A stretch of DNA of 43,137 nt from a virus (IMGVR_UViG_2541047960_000005), one strand, 5' to 3'. Shown: positions 1 to 6,396, counted from the first letter of the stretch. A program made the numbers and translations. Notes: generated by a model not told the origin, from the sequence alone.

Positions 1-197
1 GCATCAATGGTCTTTACAAAGCGGAGGTAATACACCGTAAGAGCTGGAAAAACCGTGCAGAAGTGGAACTGGCCACACTCACGTGGGTGGACTGGTATAA
101 CAATCGACGATTGCTGGAAAGGCTGGGCCATACTCCTCCGGCAGAAGCAGAAAAAGCTTATTATGCTTCCATCGGAAACGATGATCTGGCAGCCTGA
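1..197 (+). mobile_element. IS3-family (rve/integrase-core) transposase, C-terminal fragment; 5' end lies outside the window
   Basis: Frame from nt 3 reads ...ELATLTWVDWYNNRRLLERLGHTPPAEAEKAYYASIGNDDLAA, stop TGA 195-197; the W-x-x-YN-x-RR...LG...P pattern is typical of IS3-family DDE transposase C-termini. Exact IS right end not determined. Confidence 0.6.
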
Positions 198-436
198 GTT
201 CACAGATAAAACACTCTCCAGGAAACCCGGGGCGGTTCAAGGCTGCCTATACGCTCTTTGATTTCTTTAATCAGTTCTTTGTCGGTTAAAGTGGTCATGG
301 GTCAGTTCTCAACCAATAGTTATGTGAATGAAAGAAAGCAGCCAAAGAATGGACTCAATAACTGCCCAACCAATAACGGCGCAAATGACACCGAAAACAA
401 CGAAAAAACCAGTACCAGGCAAATTATTGAACATCC

Positions 437-1114
437 TCACTCTCCTTTGATGCCAATGTTTACAGCCTGGCAAGCCTCTTTGAGCACCCAGTCAACAGCG
501 TCTTTCCATGCTCCGGTTTCGACTGGCGGGTTCTCACGTTTTACCTGCTCATAAAAACGCACCGCTTTAATCAGTCCTTCAGGTACTACTGGCGATGGCT
601 GTTTAGCTTCTAAATCAGCAATTCTGTCAACTACGGCATCTACTGCATCTGAAAAACCGAACCAGTTACTCCACTCAGGCCTATCCCCGGTTGCTGCAAA
701 ATACATATCAGCTAAAGCAGACTCAGCATGGTCACGCTCGTTAATGAGTTGCTCTTCGCTTTTCTCCAGTTCAGCAATACGCTTACTTCCATCCGAGATA
801 ACACCTTCGTAATACTCACGCTGCTCGTTGAGTTTTGATTTTGCCAACTCCAGTTGTTTTGTTAGTTCCGCAATACGGCAAACATCGTTGATACGCGTTT
901 CCTCTAATGCGTTGATCTCATCCAGCAGTGCCAGCACGGTTTCTGGTCCGGTCAGAAATTTGAAGGCGTTGAGCGCATCAATATCCACACCGTAATCTTT
1001 AAGTTCCTGTTCACTTAACAAATCATCATCAACTGGCAACATTAACAGGCGTTCCATTGCTGGAATTGCACGTTCCGCCACCTCACGCAGTGCCTGGTAA
1101 TTAATTTCGCTCAC
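437..1114 (-). CDS. Ea22/Ead-like early protein (tentative)
   Basis: 225-aa ORF with GTG start, GGAGG 6 nt upstream, N-terminus MSEINYQALREVAE; GTGA overlap with upstream gene; position in leftward early operon. Confidence 0.55.
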   Translation of the reverse strand: MSEINYQALREVAERAIPAMERLLMLPVDDDLLSEQELKDYGVDIDALNAFKFLTGPETVLALLDEINALEETRINDVCRIAELTKQLELAKSKLNEQREYYEGVISDGSKRIAELEKSEEQLINERDHAESALADMYFAATGDRPEWSNWFGFSDAVDAVVDRIADLEAKQPSPVVPEGLIKAVRFYEQVKRENPPVETGAWKDAVDWVLKEACQAVNIGIKGE

Positions 1115-1617
1115 TGGTTGCCTCCTTTGCGAAGCTGGGCAGCAAAGTCAACTAACCACTCAGTCATTTCAACCTTCCCTACCAGGTCTGAACCAGGGTA
1201 CATACAGCAATCACTCTGCGCCGCTTTGAAATCCTTATACTCATATTCTTGGGCCACCAGATTTTTTGCAGCTTCTATAGCAGCATCCACCCCCTGCGCC
1301 CGGACTTCAGCCAGGAAAGCATCAGTGGTTGGCGTTTCAGGTATCTGTCTCCTCATCCGTTCTATTGCATGATTGAACCCGAAGTCTTCCGCGAGAGATA
1401 CGTCATCCATATTGTCATTGTCATCTTCAATATCCCGTGATTCTGGAATTGCAGACTTTATTCCCGCATTCTCCGCTGCCAGCGCCGCGCACTTGGCCTC
1501 AAGAGCGGCAACCACTTCCTGATGGTCTTTGTACTTAACGTATGAGCCGGAGATGTCATCACCTTCGGTGTTTAGCCATGCGTCATTGCAATTCACTGCG
1601 TAGGTTCTGATGCTCAT
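1111..1617 (-). CDS. hypothetical early protein
   Basis: ATG at 1617 (MSIRTY...) preceded by GGGAGA; ATGA overlap with upstream ORF; acidic 168-aa product. Confidence 0.55.
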   Translation of the reverse strand: MSIRTYAVNCNDAWLNTEGDDISGSYVKYKDHQEVVAALEAKCAALAAENAGIKSAIPESRDIEDDNDNMDDVSLAEDFGFNHAIERMRRQIPETPTTDAFLAEVRAQGVDAAIEAAKNLVAQEYEYKDFKAAQSDCCMYPGSDLVGKVEMTEWLVDFAAQLRKGGNQ

Positions 1618-1799
1618 GTTGATGCTCTCCCGCCCCTGACAGACGCCAGGCCAGTCAATAAAGTATCCGCACAATGCCTACCCTCAGACGTGCGCGCAGG
1701 ATAAATGCCGTTATGACCCGGCAAAATATATGCTACCCATTCATCTTGCGTTGCCTGTTCCGCCGCCTCGCGCAGTGCCTGATAGTCAATCTTGCTCAC
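1614..1799 (-). CDS. small protein with Ea22-like N-terminal motif (possible remnant)
   Basis: GTG start with GGAGG 6 nt upstream; N-terminus MSKIDYQALREAAEQATQDEW; remainder low complexity; start module is a direct repeat of that at 1086-1130. Confidence 0.35.
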   Translation of the reverse strand: MSKIDYQALREAAEQATQDEWVAYILPGHNGIYPARTSEGRHCADTLLTGLASVRGGRAST

Positions 1800-2100
1800 T
1801 GGCAGCCTCCTTTGCCGGGATTTCTAACTTTTGAGTGGTTGTATCAAATTCAAACAACTTAACCACGTCATCAAACAGGACATAATCACCATCAGGATCT
1901 TCAGTCATATCTGCGCCACAATCCTGACCGCACGAGTCGCAACCATCCATATCAAGCTCGTATCGCTTCAGGTTTGCGATATTTGATAAATTCAGCGCCA
2001 GTACAGCCAGGTCATAAACCTCTTCGGCAGTGACATCGCTGTTCAGTCCCATTTCATGGCGATATATGATTTTTTCTACTCGTTGTTTTGTGATCGTCAT
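1786..2100 (-). CDS. hypothetical protein
   Basis: ORF-track frame; start chosen at ATG 2100 (MTITKQ...); acidic Cys-containing product. Confidence 0.45.
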   Translation of the reverse strand: MTITKQRVEKIIYRHEMGLNSDVTAEEVYDLAVLALNLSNIANLKRYELDMDGCDSCGQDCGADMTEDPDGDYVLFDDVVKLFEFDTTTQKLEIPAKEAASEQD

Positions 2101-2371
2101 TTTTCTCTTCACTCCGATATACAAGGATTACTACACCCCCTCTGCTGATTGCGCGAGCTGGATCCCCTGGTTCCATGCCGTCAATTCCGAAGGCTTCGGA
2201 AAACGCATTCATTGCCTTCTGGCGTTCATCCTGCTTACGGCGTTTATTCCATTTTTTCAGGAACAACAGCGACAGCCACCGTCCGCTGCAGAACACGATG
2301 TAAAAATAACCAAGGAGCGCCAGGCCGACATTCAGGGCCGTTTCTATGGTTAGTTGTGAGTCAGTTGCCAT
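2054..2371 (-). CDS. small membrane protein (one predicted TM helix)
   Basis: ATG at 2371; hydrophobic stretch ALNVGLALLGYFYIVFCSGRWLSLLFL followed by a basic segment. Confidence 0.5.
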   Translation of the reverse strand: MATDSQLTIETALNVGLALLGYFYIVFCSGRWLSLLFLKKWNKRRKQDERQKAMNAFSEAFGIDGMEPGDPARAISRGGVVILVYRSEEKNDDHKTTSRKNHISP

Positions 2372-2609
2372 TTCTTACCTGTTTAAGTAACTGGTTGAAC
2401 ATAACACTTAGGGGATTGCTGTATCCAAACGGCAGATTGTTTACGCAGTACAGAATCGTTTTGTTTTTTTCTCCAGTTCGTACTATTAACCCATTCCACA
2501 ATAACCGTGATAATTCATTACTGATAGAAGTTGCGCTTCTTCCAAGTGCGAGGGATATATCTTCTCTACTGCAATCTGGATTTTCCTGGATATACTCGAT
2601 AACGGTCAT
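2361..2609 (-). CDS. small winged-helix-like DNA-binding protein (tentative)
   Basis: ATG at 2609 with AAGGGA upstream; the helix-turn-helix resemblance in ...REDISLALGRSATSISNELSRLLWNGLIVRTGEK is by eye only. Confidence 0.45.
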   Translation of the reverse strand: MTVIEYIQENPDCSREDISLALGRSATSISNELSRLLWNGLIVRTGEKNKTILYCVNNLPFGYSNPLSVMFNQLLKQVRNGN

Positions 2610-2619
2610 GTGGTCCCTT

Positions 2620-3201
2620 TTACTTAATATCTGTTTCGGATTGCATGCCATGAGTATTCATTTCGTTAATAATTTCATCCAGAAGGATTTCAAGCCCTTC
2701 TCGACCCATATCTGAAAGAATGAAACCTTTATCAGGGGAAGTAGTGAGCATTTTCTGATAAAGAAACAGCGCTCTTCCCATTCCTTCAGCTTCGCCGTAT
2801 TTTTGAATTAAATTCCATTCAATATACTGTTGTAAGGCAAATCGAATGGGGCCGGGATATATCGTCATAAACCCATACATCCCGTTATATACCACGGCGT
2901 GTTCAGTTGTTCCGTGTTCATTCAGGATATCAATTGTGCCGTTCTTGTCTTCTTCTTCGTTGATGAATGTCGTCACATACAACCATCGCCACTGAGCAAC
3001 CTTCATCTCAACCGGAAGTTTACCCAGTAATCCTGCTTCGTCGGCTTGCGCCAGACACTGAAGGATACGTAAACCTCGCACATTAGGAGTATCGAATTCT
3101 CCGGCATCCAGACGACGTATGGCGTCGTGATAATCAATCGTCATACTGCCAGTTCGTATACCATTGGCTGTTGCTTCAGCCTGGAATTCATCGTATTGCA
3201 T
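2620..3201 (-). CDS. hypothetical protein (193 aa)
   Basis: ATG at 3201 with GAGGA 9 nt upstream; AT-rich gene; no recognisable motif. Confidence 0.6.
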   Translation of the reverse strand: MQYDEFQAEATANGIRTGSMTIDYHDAIRRLDAGEFDTPNVRGLRILQCLAQADEAGLLGKLPVEMKVAQWRWLYVTTFINEEEDKNGTIDILNEHGTTEHAVVYNGMYGFMTIYPGPIRFALQQYIEWNLIQKYGEAEGMGRALFLYQKMLTTSPDKGFILSDMGREGLEILLDEIINEMNTHGMQSETDIK

Positions 3202-3206
3202 GATAT

Positions 3207-3401
3207 TTATTCCTCATCTTCATCTTCATCTTCATCTGCTGGTGCAATAACGTCATATCCTGCCTTTTCTGCAATAAACAGGAATGTTGAAAGAGTTCCT
3301 ACAAGTTCATCGTCATGAACATGGCGAATGAATATTACTTTCCCGTTTTTGATGGTCAGCAATACTCTGGTTTGTTCGTGTTCTGCTGTTTTCTGATGCA
3401 T
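3207..3401 (-). CDS. small protein with acidic C-terminal tail
   Basis: 64-aa ORF ending ...PADEDEDEDEE, encoded by a CATCTT hexamer repeated about 4 times (3215-3238). Confidence 0.45.
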   Translation of the reverse strand: MHQKTAEHEQTRVLLTIKNGKVIFIRHVHDDELVGTLSTFLFIAEKAGYDVIAPADEDEDEDEE

Positions 3402-3595
3402 TATTATCTCCCGTATGCTTTACGCAGAAATAAGCAGGCAATATGCATGTAATTTTCACCGTATTGTGCAATAAGGCAGGCGGTCTTGTGTGATGCCATA
3501 TTCTTTATAAAAGTCACAATAAAGCCTCCTGTGGATTAAGGTTGTAACAATCCCCGGCGATAAAACCGCAATAAACGTTCAGGGCATATTTGTTG

Positions 3596-3961
3596 TTATT
3601 GCGCTAATTCTTTTTCGGCAGCAGCTTTTGTATACTCACATGCAAAACTCAGAATTTCGCTGCCGAGTGTTTTCGTTTCGTGATTACTGGACATATGTAA
3701 TACCTGTGTTGCATGCAATAAATGATAAACATTTACCGCAAATGAATCAGGCTCCAGACAAATGCCTTCGTAATTATCTTGCTGTGAGGTTGTTTCTGTC
3801 ATTGCTCCTGAAGTGCATGCGAGCCTGTTTTTGACAATTCTCTTTTCTCTAATCACTATATCGGCAACATCTATTGCCTTTACAACCTCCGGGAGAAGTT
3901 CCGGGTTTGTATAATCAAAGTCATCAACATGGAGAACAGTTATGTTTTCGAACTTTTTCAT
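3596..3961 (-). CDS. hypothetical protein (121 aa)
   Basis: ATG at 3961 with GAGGA upstream. Confidence 0.55.
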   Translation of the reverse strand: MKKFENITVLHVDDFDYTNPELLPEVVKAIDVADIVIREKRIVKNRLACTSGAMTETTSQQDNYEGICLEPDSFAVNVYHLLHATQVLHMSSNHETKTLGSEILSFACEYTKAAAEKELAQ

Positions 3962-4089
3962 GGCTTCCTCAGCTGACTTATATGTTCTGCTATATAGCGA
4001 GTCTCAGAAGTGTTTTCATATTGAGACTGTTTCCGCAATGATTGATAAAAATGTTCGCATGTACCTTGAGGGGCGAAGCGGCGATTATG

Positions 4090-4593
4090 TCACCATTGGT
4101 ATTGGTTCTTCCGCAGAAGAGCTTCGCGAGATAAGGGGCAAACTTGTTGAGATGCGTCATGGTGTTGCTGCTCCTCACTTTTTGGTTGCTCCGGAGGAGT
4201 AACCTCACCAGTTAACAGCCACATCGGATCGCAGCCAAGAATATTTGCCAGTGGGATAAGCATACTGATAGTTGGTTCATACTCTCCGCTCTCCCACTGG
4301 ATGATAATTTCTTCATCGAGATCGAGCAGCCTGGCGAGTTCGGCGGTTGTTAAGCCGCAGGCTTCGCGTTGGGTGCGAAGACGGTTGTTGATTGCAGAAT
4401 TTTTGTTCTGTAAAAGCATTGCTGACGATAGCTTTCTGGATATGCTATTTGTCATATCCCATGCCAGTCCTGCGCATGACTCTATATCGCTAGAGAGCGT
4501 AGCATCAGGTGTTGCTTTTGCTATTAGTGTAATGAGGCTGCCGAGGTTTTTCAGTTCTTCGAGACAGTCAAGAGTTGTAGCTTTATTGATCAT
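4090..4593 (-). CDS. HTH (XRE-family) DNA-binding protein at the first position of the leftward operon
   Basis: Central segment LRTQREACGLTTAELARLLDLDEEIIIQWESGEYEPTISMLIPLANILGCDPMWLLTGE is a classic XRE helix-turn-helix; GAGG upstream of ATG 4593; start overlaps an operator-like TGATAC site. Confidence 0.6.
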   Translation of the reverse strand: MINKATTLDCLEELKNLGSLITLIAKATPDATLSSDIESCAGLAWDMTNSISRKLSSAMLLQNKNSAINNRLRTQREACGLTTAELARLLDLDEEIIIQWESGEYEPTISMLIPLANILGCDPMWLLTGEVTPPEQPKSEEQQHHDASQQVCPLSREALLRKNQYQW

Positions 4594-4696
4594 GAGATGA
4601 TACCTCAGTTACGAACTTTGTTTTATGGTAACTAAGGTATCAAGGCGTGGCAAGTGATTTTTGATACTTTGGTTTCTTTTTGTGTTTTGTGTCTGG
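4594..4696. promoter_or_regulatory. operator/promoter region downstream of cI (OL/pL-like)
   Basis: Half-sites TGATAC (4598-4603), GTATCAA (4637-4643, inverted) and TTGATAC (4661-4667), matching sites on the other side of cI. Confidence 0.4.
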
Positions 4697-5353
4697 TCAG
4701 AAAATATCCCACCTGGCATCAACCACAACACCTACTATTTCGCAATCATTGTCCATTTCTATGATTGGATATTGTGGATTAAGGGGCTTTAGAAACGCCT
4801 TTCCCATGTCAGAAATATATTTTTTGAATGTTGCTTCATTGGTAGATTTTTTTCTGGCGATGACGTAACACCCTGAAAAAACTTCTTTATCTGGGTTGAC
4901 AAGGATCGACATTCCTTCAGGAAATGTTATTCCTACGGGCGAAGTCATTGAGTCTCCGTGCACTTCCAGCCAGAACCCCCTCTCACCAGCGTATTTTACA
5001 GAATGCCTCCAATTATCCTGATCATACATGTTGTAGTCATCACCAGAAGTTGCGAATAATCCTGCCTGAACCCAGTTAATTACAGGGTAAGAGTGTGCTG
5101 TGTCTCTCTGTGGGCAGCTCTTAACATTATTTTCCCAATGCTTATCTTTTTCATCTCCGTTCTGAAGCCACTGCGGTGAACACCGCAGTGCAGCTGCAAC
5201 TTTAAAAAGGGTGTCACCGTTGAAACTTTTTGTAAGGCCTTGCTCGGCTTTACTGATTGCAACTCTGGTGACCCCAGCTTTTTTAGCCAACGCATTTTGT
5301 GTTAACCCAGCTTTTTGCCGTGCGTTGATGAGACGTTCACCTAAAGACTTCAT
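4697..5353 (-). CDS. cI: CI-type prophage repressor (N-terminal HTH plus C-terminal LexA-like S24 peptidase)
   Basis: ATG at 5353 with GAGGAG upstream; N-terminal LTQNALAKKAGVTRVAISKAEQG; C-terminal S24 motifs including AG and VHGDSMTSP. Confidence 0.85.
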   Translation of the reverse strand: MKSLGERLINARQKAGLTQNALAKKAGVTRVAISKAEQGLTKSFNGDTLFKVAAALRCSPQWLQNGDEKDKHWENNVKSCPQRDTAHSYPVINWVQAGLFATSGDDYNMYDQDNWRHSVKYAGERGFWLEVHGDSMTSPVGITFPEGMSILVNPDKEVFSGCYVIARKKSTNEATFKKYISDMGKAFLKPLNPQYPIIEMDNDCEIVGVVVDARWDIF

Positions 5354-5464
5354 TTTTCTTCTCCTCTCATGGCTGTTGATACTAAAGTAACAGAATTTCT
5401 TGATACTTTGGGTTCCTGTGGTTAACATCGTTGGATAACAAAGTATCTGGTGTGAGACTAAAGA
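5354..5464. promoter_or_regulatory. operator/divergent promoter region upstream of cI (OR-like)
   Basis: TTGATAC at 5376-5382 and 5400-5406; 9-bp inverted repeat GATACTTTG (5402-5410) / CAAAGTATC (5439-5447); 24- and ~40-bp spacings mirror the OL side. Confidence 0.45.
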
Positions 5465-5692
5465 ATGACCCTTTATGAAATATTAAAAATTCAATTTAAA
5501 ACCAATGCCGCTATTGGTCGCAGGTTCCCAAAGAAAGGAAGGCCTCGTGGCAGTCAAGGTGTTGGAAAGTGGAAAACGCGAGGTGTTCCGGAGGATGTTG
5601 CCATTCTTTGTCATCTGGATCCGAGCATTCCATATACACACCCAAGTCTAGCGAATACAGAAGATGACAAGCCCACAGGAGACCAACAATGA
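5465..5692 (+). CDS. ORF at the cro position (doubtful)
   Basis: 75-aa ORF whose stop overlaps the next start (ATGA), but no recognisable HTH and a weak ribosome-binding site. Confidence 0.25.
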   Translation: MTLYEILKIQFKTNAAIGRRFPKKGRPRGSQGVGKWKTRGVPEDVAILCHLDPSIPYTHPSLANTEDDKPTGDQQ

Positions 5693-6396
5693 ACACCGCA
5701 ATTTTTAACGGCAAAGCATCCATGACCAGCGTTGAGATCGCAGAGCTGGTGGGAAGCCGACCAGATAGTGTTAAGAGAACTATTGAAACACTGGCTAAAA
5801 AGGGAATCATCCAATTTCCACAGACTGTGGAAATTGAGAATAAACAATCACTTGGGCCTCGCCGATTTTCTAGCGCGTATGTATTCGAAGGTGAACGAGG
5901 TAAGCGCGACAGCATCATTGTCGTCGCACAGCTCTGTCCTGAATTCACAGCTCGCCTGGTAGATCGCTGGCGCGAACTGGAAGAACAGATCCGTAAGCCA
6001 ATGAGCGAAATCGAAATGGTTGCCGCGATGGCTCTTGAAGCCGTTCGCCAACAGAAACGGATCACTCAGGTGGAAGAAAAAGTCAGCCACGTTGCTGAAA
6101 CAGTCGAGCAAATTAAAAAGGGCACTATTCGTGAGGGCTATGCCGGATATCGCCAACTGAAAGCAAAAACCGGTTTGTCAGATGATAAATGCCGCAATCT
6201 GGTGAACGCCTATCAGATTCCTACAGACACCCATGAGTTCATGACGCCGGACGGATTGTTGTCACGTCGCGCAATTGTTGCTGTGGAACCGTTTATGGCT
6301 GCTTTTTATCGGGTTATGGAGGAAGCAGAACCGCGAGGGACTCGCTGGTATCACCCGAAAATGGGGTTATTTCAGGTTATTGGTTGGCAGCGGTGA
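5689..6396 (+). CDS. phage antirepressor-like regulatory protein (tentative)
   Basis: AGGAG 7 nt upstream of ATG 5689; N-terminal MTSVEIAELVGSRPDSVKRTIETLAKKGII and central ...LVDRWRELEEQ resemble phage antirepressor families; not confirmed by search. Confidence 0.5.
   Translation: MNTAIFNGKASMTSVEIAELVGSRPDSVKRTIETLAKKGIIQFPQTVEIENKQSLGPRRFSSAYVFEGERGKRDSIIVVAQLCPEFTARLVDRWRELEEQIRKPMSEIEMVAAMALEAVRQQKRITQVEEKVSHVAETVEQIKKGTIREGYAGYRQLKAKTGLSDDKCRNLVNAYQIPTDTHEFMTPDGLLSRRAIVAVEPFMAAFYRVMEEAEPRGTRWYHPKMGLFQVIGWQR

Follow-up and report, generated by a model that had tools for sequence, protein, structure and literature searches.

Small accessory genes of the leftward early operon of an Escherichia coli lambdoid prophage and their possible role in the lysis/lysogeny switch

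The stretch of viral DNA IMGVR_UViG_2541047960_000005 (43,137 nucleotides, called here the window) contains at positions 1786-3961 a block of tightly packed minus-strand genes of an Escherichia coli lambdoid prophage of the phiP27/PhiR49_2 type. The genes are designated A to F, with F lying nearest to the repressor gene, and their products are considered here as possible modulators of the lysis/lysogeny circuitry of the phage. An earlier reading made from the sequence alone (the sequence-only reading) had described the block as an AT-rich leftward early one, and this was borne out by the six minus-strand open reading frames (ORFs) found there, by the content of guanine and cytosine (GC) and by the operators and promoter next to them. 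The following features were annotated, given from the repressor gene leftwards (aa, amino acids; HTH, helix-turn-helix; pI, isoelectric point; E-values in brackets).

4697-5353, LexA-family cI-like repressor gene, upstream of the block
4598..4674, no strand, OL-like operator cluster with three copies of TGATACYTNRGKT, at 4598 (plus), 4630 (minus) and 4662 (plus)
4090..4593, minus strand, XRE-type HTH regulator of 167 aa, counterpart of phiP27 L10, first gene of the operon, outside the block
3960..4202, plus strand, opposite-strand ORF of 80-86 aa, phrog_6104 (1.4e-49)
3596..3961, minus strand, gene F, ORF of 121 aa corresponding to phiP27 L08, conserved core at residues 54-121 (3596-3802)
3404..3517, minus strand, gene for a basic protein of 37 aa (pI 9.5), missed earlier, with an AGGAGG ribosome-binding site and a stop codon 2 nt before the start of E
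3207..3401, minus strand, gene E, acidic protein of 64 aa corresponding to phiP27 L07, phrog_340 (7e-23)
2620..3201, minus strand, gene D, acidic protein of 193 aa corresponding to phiP27 L06, phrog_1515, stand-alone alpha/beta protein
2361..2609, minus strand, gene C, protein of 82 aa consisting only of a winged HTH, MarR-like phrog_1687 (1.5e-24)
2054..2371, minus strand, gene B, DUF4752 protein of 105 aa with a hydrophobic helix at residues 12-30 followed by a basic stretch, pI 9.4
1786..2100, minus strand, gene A, very acidic protein of 104 aa (pI 4.1) with two conserved cysteines, phrog_3126 (4.9e-64)
1111..1799, minus strand, Ea22-like gene directly downstream of the block, Ead_Ea22 (6.6e-12), broken
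437..1114, minus strand, second Ea22-like gene of 225 aa, Ead_Ea22 (1.5e-23), end of the gene string in the window

Region 1500-4700 is present at full length and with 99.3-99.6% identity in about 100 complete E. coli chromosomes, including that of O7:K1 CE10, in which the prophage is integrated beside mlrA; pieces of the region were found in 1,530 of 5,426 complete genomes. The block aligns along 100% of its length, with 99.6% identity, to the isolated phage PhiR49_2, and segments with 75-93% identity occur in phiP27, ASU11 and many phages converting to Shiga toxin (Stx) types Stx1a and Stx2a. In phiP27 the region is annotated as L06-L10, and all products of the block have already been deposited, on up to 1,000 or more contigs, as hypothetical, 'prophage protein', DUF4752 or MarR-like proteins. 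The block is ordinary, catalogued and uncharacterised, and consists of typical phage 'dark-matter' genes. Cluster membership was not taken as evidence of homology, since neighbouring genes without relation to each other are mixed in the clusters. No papers were found in the literature under the RefSeq accessions, DUF4752 or the PHROG numbers, nothing relevant was found in the literature on PhiR49/ECOR and phiP27, and a scan of positions 1-6000 against Rfam at E <= 0.1 gave no match.

The GC content of 1786-3961 is 42.4%, versus 52.4% for the window, which places the block in the lowest 3.4% of equal-sized windows. The most AT-rich genes are those closest to the repressor, with 39% GC in C, E and F and a GC content at third codon positions of 28% in E. 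Mosaicism follows gene boundaries: A, B, the segment C-D-E-37-aa gene, the segment D-E-37-aa gene-F (C-terminal part) and F were each found in different sets of phages.

A sigma-70-like promoter-like site, TTGCCA-17-TACCAT (4653-4625, minus strand), lies together with the three TGATACYTNRGKT copies that overlap it in the 103-bp gap between cI and the XRE-type HTH gene, and a fourth copy was found at 5401, in the cI/cro gap. In the whole window, five matches to TGATACYTNRGKT were observed versus 0.92 expected, and no shuffle gave five. Neighbouring genes either overlap (C/B by 11 nt, B/A by 47 nt, A/Ea22 by 14 nt) or are separated by spacers of 2-10 nt (37-aa gene/E, E/D, D/C); each is preceded by a Shine-Dalgarno sequence on the minus strand, and no convincing terminator was detected on that strand between the genes. 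Promoter-like sites within the block are no commoner than in shuffled sequence, and none of them stands out. Because of the overlaps, the short spacers and the absence of minus-strand terminators, the genes are probably co-transcribed, and their attribution to a leftward early operon is well supported by this anatomy.

The operon has a leftward promoter overlapped by operators shared with the cI/cro region, as is characteristic of PL, whereas an N-type antiterminator in first place and exo/bet/gam genes downstream are absent: the first gene is that of the XRE-type HTH regulator, and the products encoded between 437 and 4593 gave no match to recombination or N families in Pfam and PHROG. The position proposed earlier for the block, in the accessory part of a lambdoid PL operon, agrees with its location between the immunity region and the Ea22-like/xis/int side, its mosaic structure and its lack of any signature of essential functions. 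Since the genes are located behind an operator-controlled PL, they should be silent in the lysogen unless promoters of their own are present.

The gene map required several corrections. The six ORFs described earlier all exist, but the number of genes does not hold: at least seven are directed leftward, the 37-aa gene having been missed, and an opposite-strand ORF is present besides. The frame of the 37-aa gene is open in four diverged phages (L003, L004, L016 and L017; 72-94% identical), with 9/3/17 and 7/4/16 substitutions at codon positions 1/2/3; the gene is annotated in PhiR49_2 and in Stx1 phages, and its product has no match in PHROG, Pfam or PADLOC. In the opposite-strand ORF, comparison with ASU11 revealed 6/3/19 substitutions by codon position (15 synonymous and 9 non-synonymous). 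This ORF is convergent with the regulator gene and overlaps its 3' end by 113 nt, shares the sequence CATG with the annotated start of the 121-aa ORF of F, and occupies the place of phiP27 L09, to which it was matched by position; it is not annotated in RefSeq. A perfect TATAAT was observed upstream of it at 3910-3915, inside the doubtful N-terminal half of F.

According to PHROG and RefSeq, gene A starts at ATG 2100 and not at TTG 2124. Gene C starts at ATG 2609, which gives a product of 82 aa; its 42-nt 5' extension has 0 synonymous versus 6 non-synonymous changes. In the 121-aa ORF of F, conservation is confined to residues 54-121, the only part called by RefSeq (68 aa). A clear coding signal in the form of third-position bias was found for A, B (5/2/17 and 16/11/32), D, the 37-aa gene and the C-terminal half of F (19/13/30); the bias is weak for C (3/4/6), and changes in the N-terminal half of F are too sparse for a judgement.

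The regulator encoded at the head of the operon matches HTH_3 of Pfam (3.8e-11), phrog_4739 (3.6e-99) and phrog_4836, 'CII-like regulator' (1.3e-40), while its match to DicA of NCBIfam is below the cut-off. Its N-terminal domain is not an HTH. The regulator is 80% identical to the N-terminal part of the two-HTH regulators of Stx phages. Gene F, which lies directly after it, belongs to phrog_5451 (1.7e-83), and phrog_4587 spans its residues 57-121; in Stx phages F has only 66 aa, 54% identical to the C-terminal half, and this short gene abuts or overlaps the regulator stop. A segment of F spanning residues of about 62-117 shares homology with the non-HTH domain at the N-terminus of the L10-type regulators: F was aligned by BLASTP with residues 24-70 of the PhiR49_2 regulator (9e-10, 43% identity over 47 aa) and with the N-terminal domain of the Stx2_112808 regulator (9e-7), comparison with the regulator N-terminal domain by hhalign gave a probability of 94.6% and an E-value of 6.5e-8, and phrog_4836 connects both proteins. 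The kinship is visible only through the PhiR49_2 and Stx2 variants of the regulator and through profiles. What F encodes is thus the N-terminal domain of the adjacent regulator family in stand-alone form; this relation appears to be new. PhiR49_2, otherwise 99.5% identical, carries a different N-terminal domain in its regulator (L002 6239-6787), the variant closest to F; because this domain differs from that of the window, the regulator N-terminal domain is probably an exchangeable module itself.

Protein E has the conserved core RVLLTIxNGKVI...DDE..G...TFL..A..AGY and an acidic tail, DEDEDEDEE, encoded by the hexanucleotide repeat (GATGAA)4, seen as (TCATCT)4 at 3214-3237. The tail varies in steps of 6 nt among E. 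coli genomes, giving forms of 60, 62, 64 and 66 aa, is shorter in Stx phages and is absent from phiP27 and ASU11. A homologue search with E retrieved only near-identical E. coli proteins; E-like sequences were otherwise found in Klebsiella phages. Weak matches of E to C-terminal parts of antirepressors were obtained with phrog_4792 (5.8e-6, positions 199-240 of 268) and phrog_2379 (4.3e-4, positions 127-175 of 187).

For protein D, no match was found in Pfam, NCBIfam, PADLOC or PDB. An exhaustive profile search yielded 101 clusters, nearly all of stand-alone proteins of 190-220 aa. No Pfam match was detected for 47 members of the family, and among seven longer relatives only Ig-like/phage-tail domains were found, on the 973-aa protein P0125. 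The AlphaFold2 model of D is confident (pLDDT, predicted local distance difference test, 86.9; pTM, predicted template modelling score, 0.82), and no structural relative of it was found in PDB; a profile search against PDB sequences gave noise only. As modelled, D appears to have a new orphan fold. Invariant polar residues are few across the 47 members; because of this, and of the lack of a fold or Pfam relative, D is probably not an enzyme. D homologues of the Klebsiella phage KPP5665-2 (GP30, L013 3477-4055) and of its sister phages are annotated as '2-polyprenylphenol hydrolase / flavodoxin oxidoreductase', a name that looks like a propagated mis-annotation, since neither Pfam nor fold supports it.

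In E. coli, genes E and D always occur as a pair, which is present in 203 of 5,426 complete genomes (3.7%); among phage records, 35 contain an E-like and 39 a D-like sequence, and 32 contain both. In Klebsiella phage KPP5665-2 the E-like gene of GP33 is located about 650 bp upstream of D, and an E-like gene lies upstream of D in CharmingMan as well. Judged by these sequence matches, E and D constitute a pair co-occurring across Escherichia and Klebsiella phages, and the pairing appears to be new. The D gene is located between cI and xis/int in KPP5665-2, CharmingMan and the Aeromonas phage AsXd-1. Homologues of D were also found in elements resembling P4 and phage-inducible chromosomal islands (PICI), in L005 (4001-8321) and L007 (4001-7743), between alpA and the gene of a 920-aa primase, just upstream of the primase-helicase, and in one database protein (P0046, 336 aa) a D homologue is fused to its downstream neighbour (phrog_37628). 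With regard to the satellite context, homology of D to an ORF of the P4 left operon was considered and dropped, as tblastn with a D relative found no P4 record. Antirepressor genes flank D in L010, L013 and L014, and in L010 the gene directly upstream of the D homologue belongs to phrog_4792 and phrog_2379, the same families that E resembles.

Among the distal genes, C aligns to positions 65-150 of the 162 of phrog_1687 and has a winged-HTH core like that of MarR regulators, as shown by matches to HTH_24, HTH_27 and TrmB over residues of about 12-70. Unlike MarR proteins of about 140-150 aa with dimerisation helices, C has 82 aa (96 at most) and lacks the flanking helices; its Pfam scores are below threshold for MarR_2 (23.0 bits, cut-off 27) and MarR (14.3 bits, cut-off 24.6). 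It is annotated as 'MarR family' in Stx1 phages and is not annotated in CE10 or PhiR49_2. Protein B belongs to the family DUF4752 (PF15944; 7.2e-37, 125.8 bits versus a cut-off of 27, model positions 2-84 of 84) and to phrog_667, and an orthologue is named 'DUF4752 family protein' in RefSeq; its gene adjoins Ea22-like genes in POCJ13, in a P1-like phage and in an Stx1 phage. The statement that none of the products carries an assignable motif has therefore to be withdrawn for the one-transmembrane protein (DUF4752) and the winged-helix protein (MarR-like phrog_1687).

Protein A has 248 homologues, none with a Pfam domain, and shows no match to Ead_Ea22 (PF13935). Its gene is present in 63 phage records, including siphoviruses of 45-48 kb such as Akira, seszw and Bas80; in the Akira-type phages it is flanked by small unnamed genes next to the terminase genes. 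The sequence CDSCGQDC of A was considered as a zinc knuckle and rejected, as only two of the cysteines are conserved. In some E. coli prophages a form of A (P0184 and P0189; 148-159 aa) continues, from '...ETPxTDAFLAEVRA...' on, into the C-terminal part of the Ea22-like protein encoded downstream, and the point of fusion marks a recombination joint common to both genes. The Ea22-like gene at 1111-1799 has an extra TG at about 1671-1672 compared with the intact 228-aa gene of CE10, which splits it into frames of 61 and 187 aa; it is either a pseudogene or the result of a sequencing error.

The products of the block are tentatively regarded as small protein-binding modulators of the phage's lysis/lysogeny circuitry, a reading that we hold to be plausible, at somewhat short of an even chance. 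Under this reading, the segment would be the accessory part of a repressor-controlled PL-type operon, with seven or more small genes that are coupled in translation and put together from modules exchanged independently between phages. The promoter-proximal module has the order HTH regulator, F, 37-aa gene, E and D; the order cI, regulator, F, (37 aa), E, D recurs in phiP27, Stx1_14040, ASU11 and Stx2_112808. The products would be made immediately after derepression and would bind either the regulator or repressor of the phage itself or their counterparts from co-resident prophages, and the outcome would be a tuned lysis/lysogeny decision and induction efficiency, as with the exo-xis genes of lambda. 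The distal genes C, B and A may represent mosaic 'ea'-type cargo travelling with Ea22-like genes. This reading is favoured since the positive functional links suggested by sequence similarity are all regulatory (the winged HTH, the copy of a regulator domain and the antirepressor-like fragment) and since the exo-xis region is the closest studied analogue.

The exo-xis region of lambda and Stx phages, comprising orf60a, orf61, orf63, orf73, ea8.5 and ea22, is likewise located on the PL transcript between the immunity/recombination genes and xis/int, consists of small early dispensable ORFs and ends with Ea22-like genes, which here occupy 437-1799. Genes of this region in lambda and Stx phages shift lysogenisation and induction (PMC3824215, PMC7093339, PMC10869804), and ea22 is pro-lysogenic (PMC7093339). 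Unlike them, A-F have no PHROG or Pfam match to orf60a, orf61, orf63, orf73 or ea8.5, exo/bet/gam are absent between cI and Ea22 in this phage, and the HTH regulator, not N, is the first PL gene. The gene string L06-L10 of phiP27, found also in ASU11, PhiR49_2 and long-tailed Stx1a/Stx2a phages, includes direct orthologues of D (L06), E (L07), F (L08) and the regulator (L10) in the same order beside cI, whereas C, B and A, like the acidic tail of E, are missing from phiP27 and ASU11, and in Stx phages F is limited to the 66-aa form and the regulator is of the two-HTH kind. Phage antirepressors resemble the E/D module in that E aligns to the C-terminal 40-50 residues of phrog_4792/phrog_2379 and that antirepressor genes repeatedly flank D homologues; an early small binding protein is a plausible common logic. 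In contrast to them, E has only 64 aa and weak similarity and lacks Bro-N, ORF6N, KilAC and ANT domains; no Pfam match to Bro-N/ORF6N/KilA-N or KilAC/ANT was found for E, D or F.

Several points weigh against a role in the switch. The proteins A, B, D, E and F and the 37-aa protein have no characterised homologue, and their functions are all assigned by inference. Small acidic proteins such as A, D, E and F (pI 4.1-5.0) are equally typical of anti-restriction DNA mimics. The likeness of E to antirepressors comes solely from the weak PHROG matches (5.8e-6 and 4.3e-4), and direct phmmer comparison of E with the antirepressors neighbouring D homologues found nothing. The co-occurrence of E and D derives largely from close relatives among Stx phages, with only about 4-5 independent lineages, and the satellite relatives of D adjoin a primase gene, which would also fit a role in replication or interference. 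By BLASTP, F has no significant similarity to the regulator of the window itself, the N-terminal domain of which is more diverged, and paralogy of F and the regulator says nothing on whether the proteins interact. For A, lysogeny control would be irrelevant in the Akira-type phages if these 45-48 kb siphoviruses are lytic, as we take them to be.

The idea of the sequence-only reading, that one or more of A, D, E and F are early counter-defence proteins against restriction or immunity, for example acidic mimics of DNA or protein, appears rather doubtful. The block shares with lambda Ral, T7 Ocr, ArdA, KlcA/ArdB and Gam/Abc2 the early expression and the small, acidic products, including the acidic repeat tail of E, and lambda Ral is itself located in the PL operon; the mosaic, fast-turning content, the low GC, the occurrence of A in siphoviruses of 45-48 kb (e.g. 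Akira) and of D in P4/PICI-like satellites as well as in temperate phages point in the same direction, and so does the fact that D, like many anti-defence proteins, has an orphan fold. However, no product has sequence similarity to those proteins and D has no fold similarity to them, the fold comparison having covered D only; no anti-restriction or exclusion family of Pfam was matched even at E <= 1 (ArdA, KlcA/ArdB, Ocr, Ral, Lar and Gam being looked for among the hits); no solved anti-defence protein was matched, by sequence in PDB searches that were empty or insignificant or by fold for the D model; and PADLOC-DB 2.0 gave zero matches for A, B, D, E, F, the 37-aa protein and the opposite-strand ORF, those of C and the regulator being generic HTH parts of the CARF/CasR/RmrA models only. 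The proposed check against known anti-restriction and abortive-infection families was in this way performed with Pfam, PADLOC and PDB and matched no family, and the proposed structure prediction gave for D a confident model without fold relative and for A a model that is unusable and was not used (pLDDT 49.5). Searches with peptide strings did not find the six proteins among the accessory genes in the supplements of two large screens of E. coli phage accessory genes, the acidic tail of E is dispensable, being absent from phiP27 and ASU11, and the positive homology links lead only to regulator and antirepressor families. A further proposal, that D with its partner E founds an undescribed early family with an orphan fold which neutralises a specific protein of the host or of a rival element, as an anti-defence factor or as a class of antirepressor, is likewise given a modest likelihood; with similar reservation, such a family might range over temperate Escherichia, Klebsiella and Aeromonas phages and P4/PICI-like satellites and act in prophage-prophage or satellite-helper conflict.

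Superinfection exclusion or abortive infection protecting the lysogen, with the DUF4752 membrane protein B and the winged-HTH protein C as candidates, is the least likely of the functional readings and is considered clearly unlikely, because the operators in front of these genes should keep them switched off in the lysogen, and the promoter-like sites inside the block do not exceed those of shuffled sequence. Like many exclusion proteins, B is small, crosses the membrane once and has a basic juxtamembrane stretch, but its gene is consistently linked to Ea22-like and not to immunity genes; the weak match of C to phrog_142, 'Ren-like exclusion protein' (2.9e-5), spans only the generic winged HTH; the GC content is low, as in morons, and the PADLOC search noted above was empty for B and gave for C the generic HTH only. 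Very improbable is the explanation that some of the ORFs are over-extended or chance frames in a decaying prophage. The prophage is indeed damaged, with the tail of an insertion sequence (IS) transposase at 1-197 and the 2-bp frameshift in the Ea22-like gene, neither C nor the N-terminal half of F appears in RefSeq, no coding signal was found in the latter or in the 5' extension of C, and the model of A is disordered. Against this explanation, third-position bias and intact frames in diverged phages were found for A, B, D, the 37-aa gene and the C-terminal half of F, each listed ORF can be placed in a PHROG family at E < 1e-22, the genes have ribosome-binding sites as well as stops coupled to starts, and they are intact in the viable phage PhiR49_2. 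A role in modulating the switch remains the reading we favour.

The remainder of the window encodes ordinary lambdoid functions, namely Rha/Roi-like regulators, DnaC- and DnaB-like replication proteins and DUF968, as well as a porin moron, a NanS-like esterase and structural genes. Positions 1-197 (plus strand) encode the C-terminal tail of the IS transposase (Pfam rve_2 and rve_3, about 1e-6). Relatives of the CE10 type have further ea genes, xis and int past the Ea22-like genes; since these are absent from the window, the left arm of the prophage appears to have been either truncated or broken by an IS. A second low-GC island, of about 40.6% GC, is located at 12551-16022 and looks like typical moron cargo. 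It contains the following genes.

13242-14384, minus strand, porin gene, Porin_1 (8e-151)
14775-15113, C-terminal fragment of a type II DNA methyltransferase
15594-16022, TolA-C-terminal-like protein

The relation of F to the regulator, the pairing of E and D and the orphan fold of D appear to be new, and the analysis adds a corrected gene map and two testable pairings, F/regulator and E/D. The same type of early region is present in long-tailed Stx1a/Stx2a phages and in genomes of enterohaemorrhagic E. coli O111 and of sequence type ST131. In Stx2 phages the type of the early region determines the efficiency of induction and hence the output of toxin (bioRxiv 10.1101/2024.03.06.583675). If one of the products is instead a counter-defence protein, the D/E pair would represent a new family, carried by 3.7% of complete E. 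coli genomes; should F, E and D indeed modulate the switch, they could help to explain differences in Stx production and in prophage stability.

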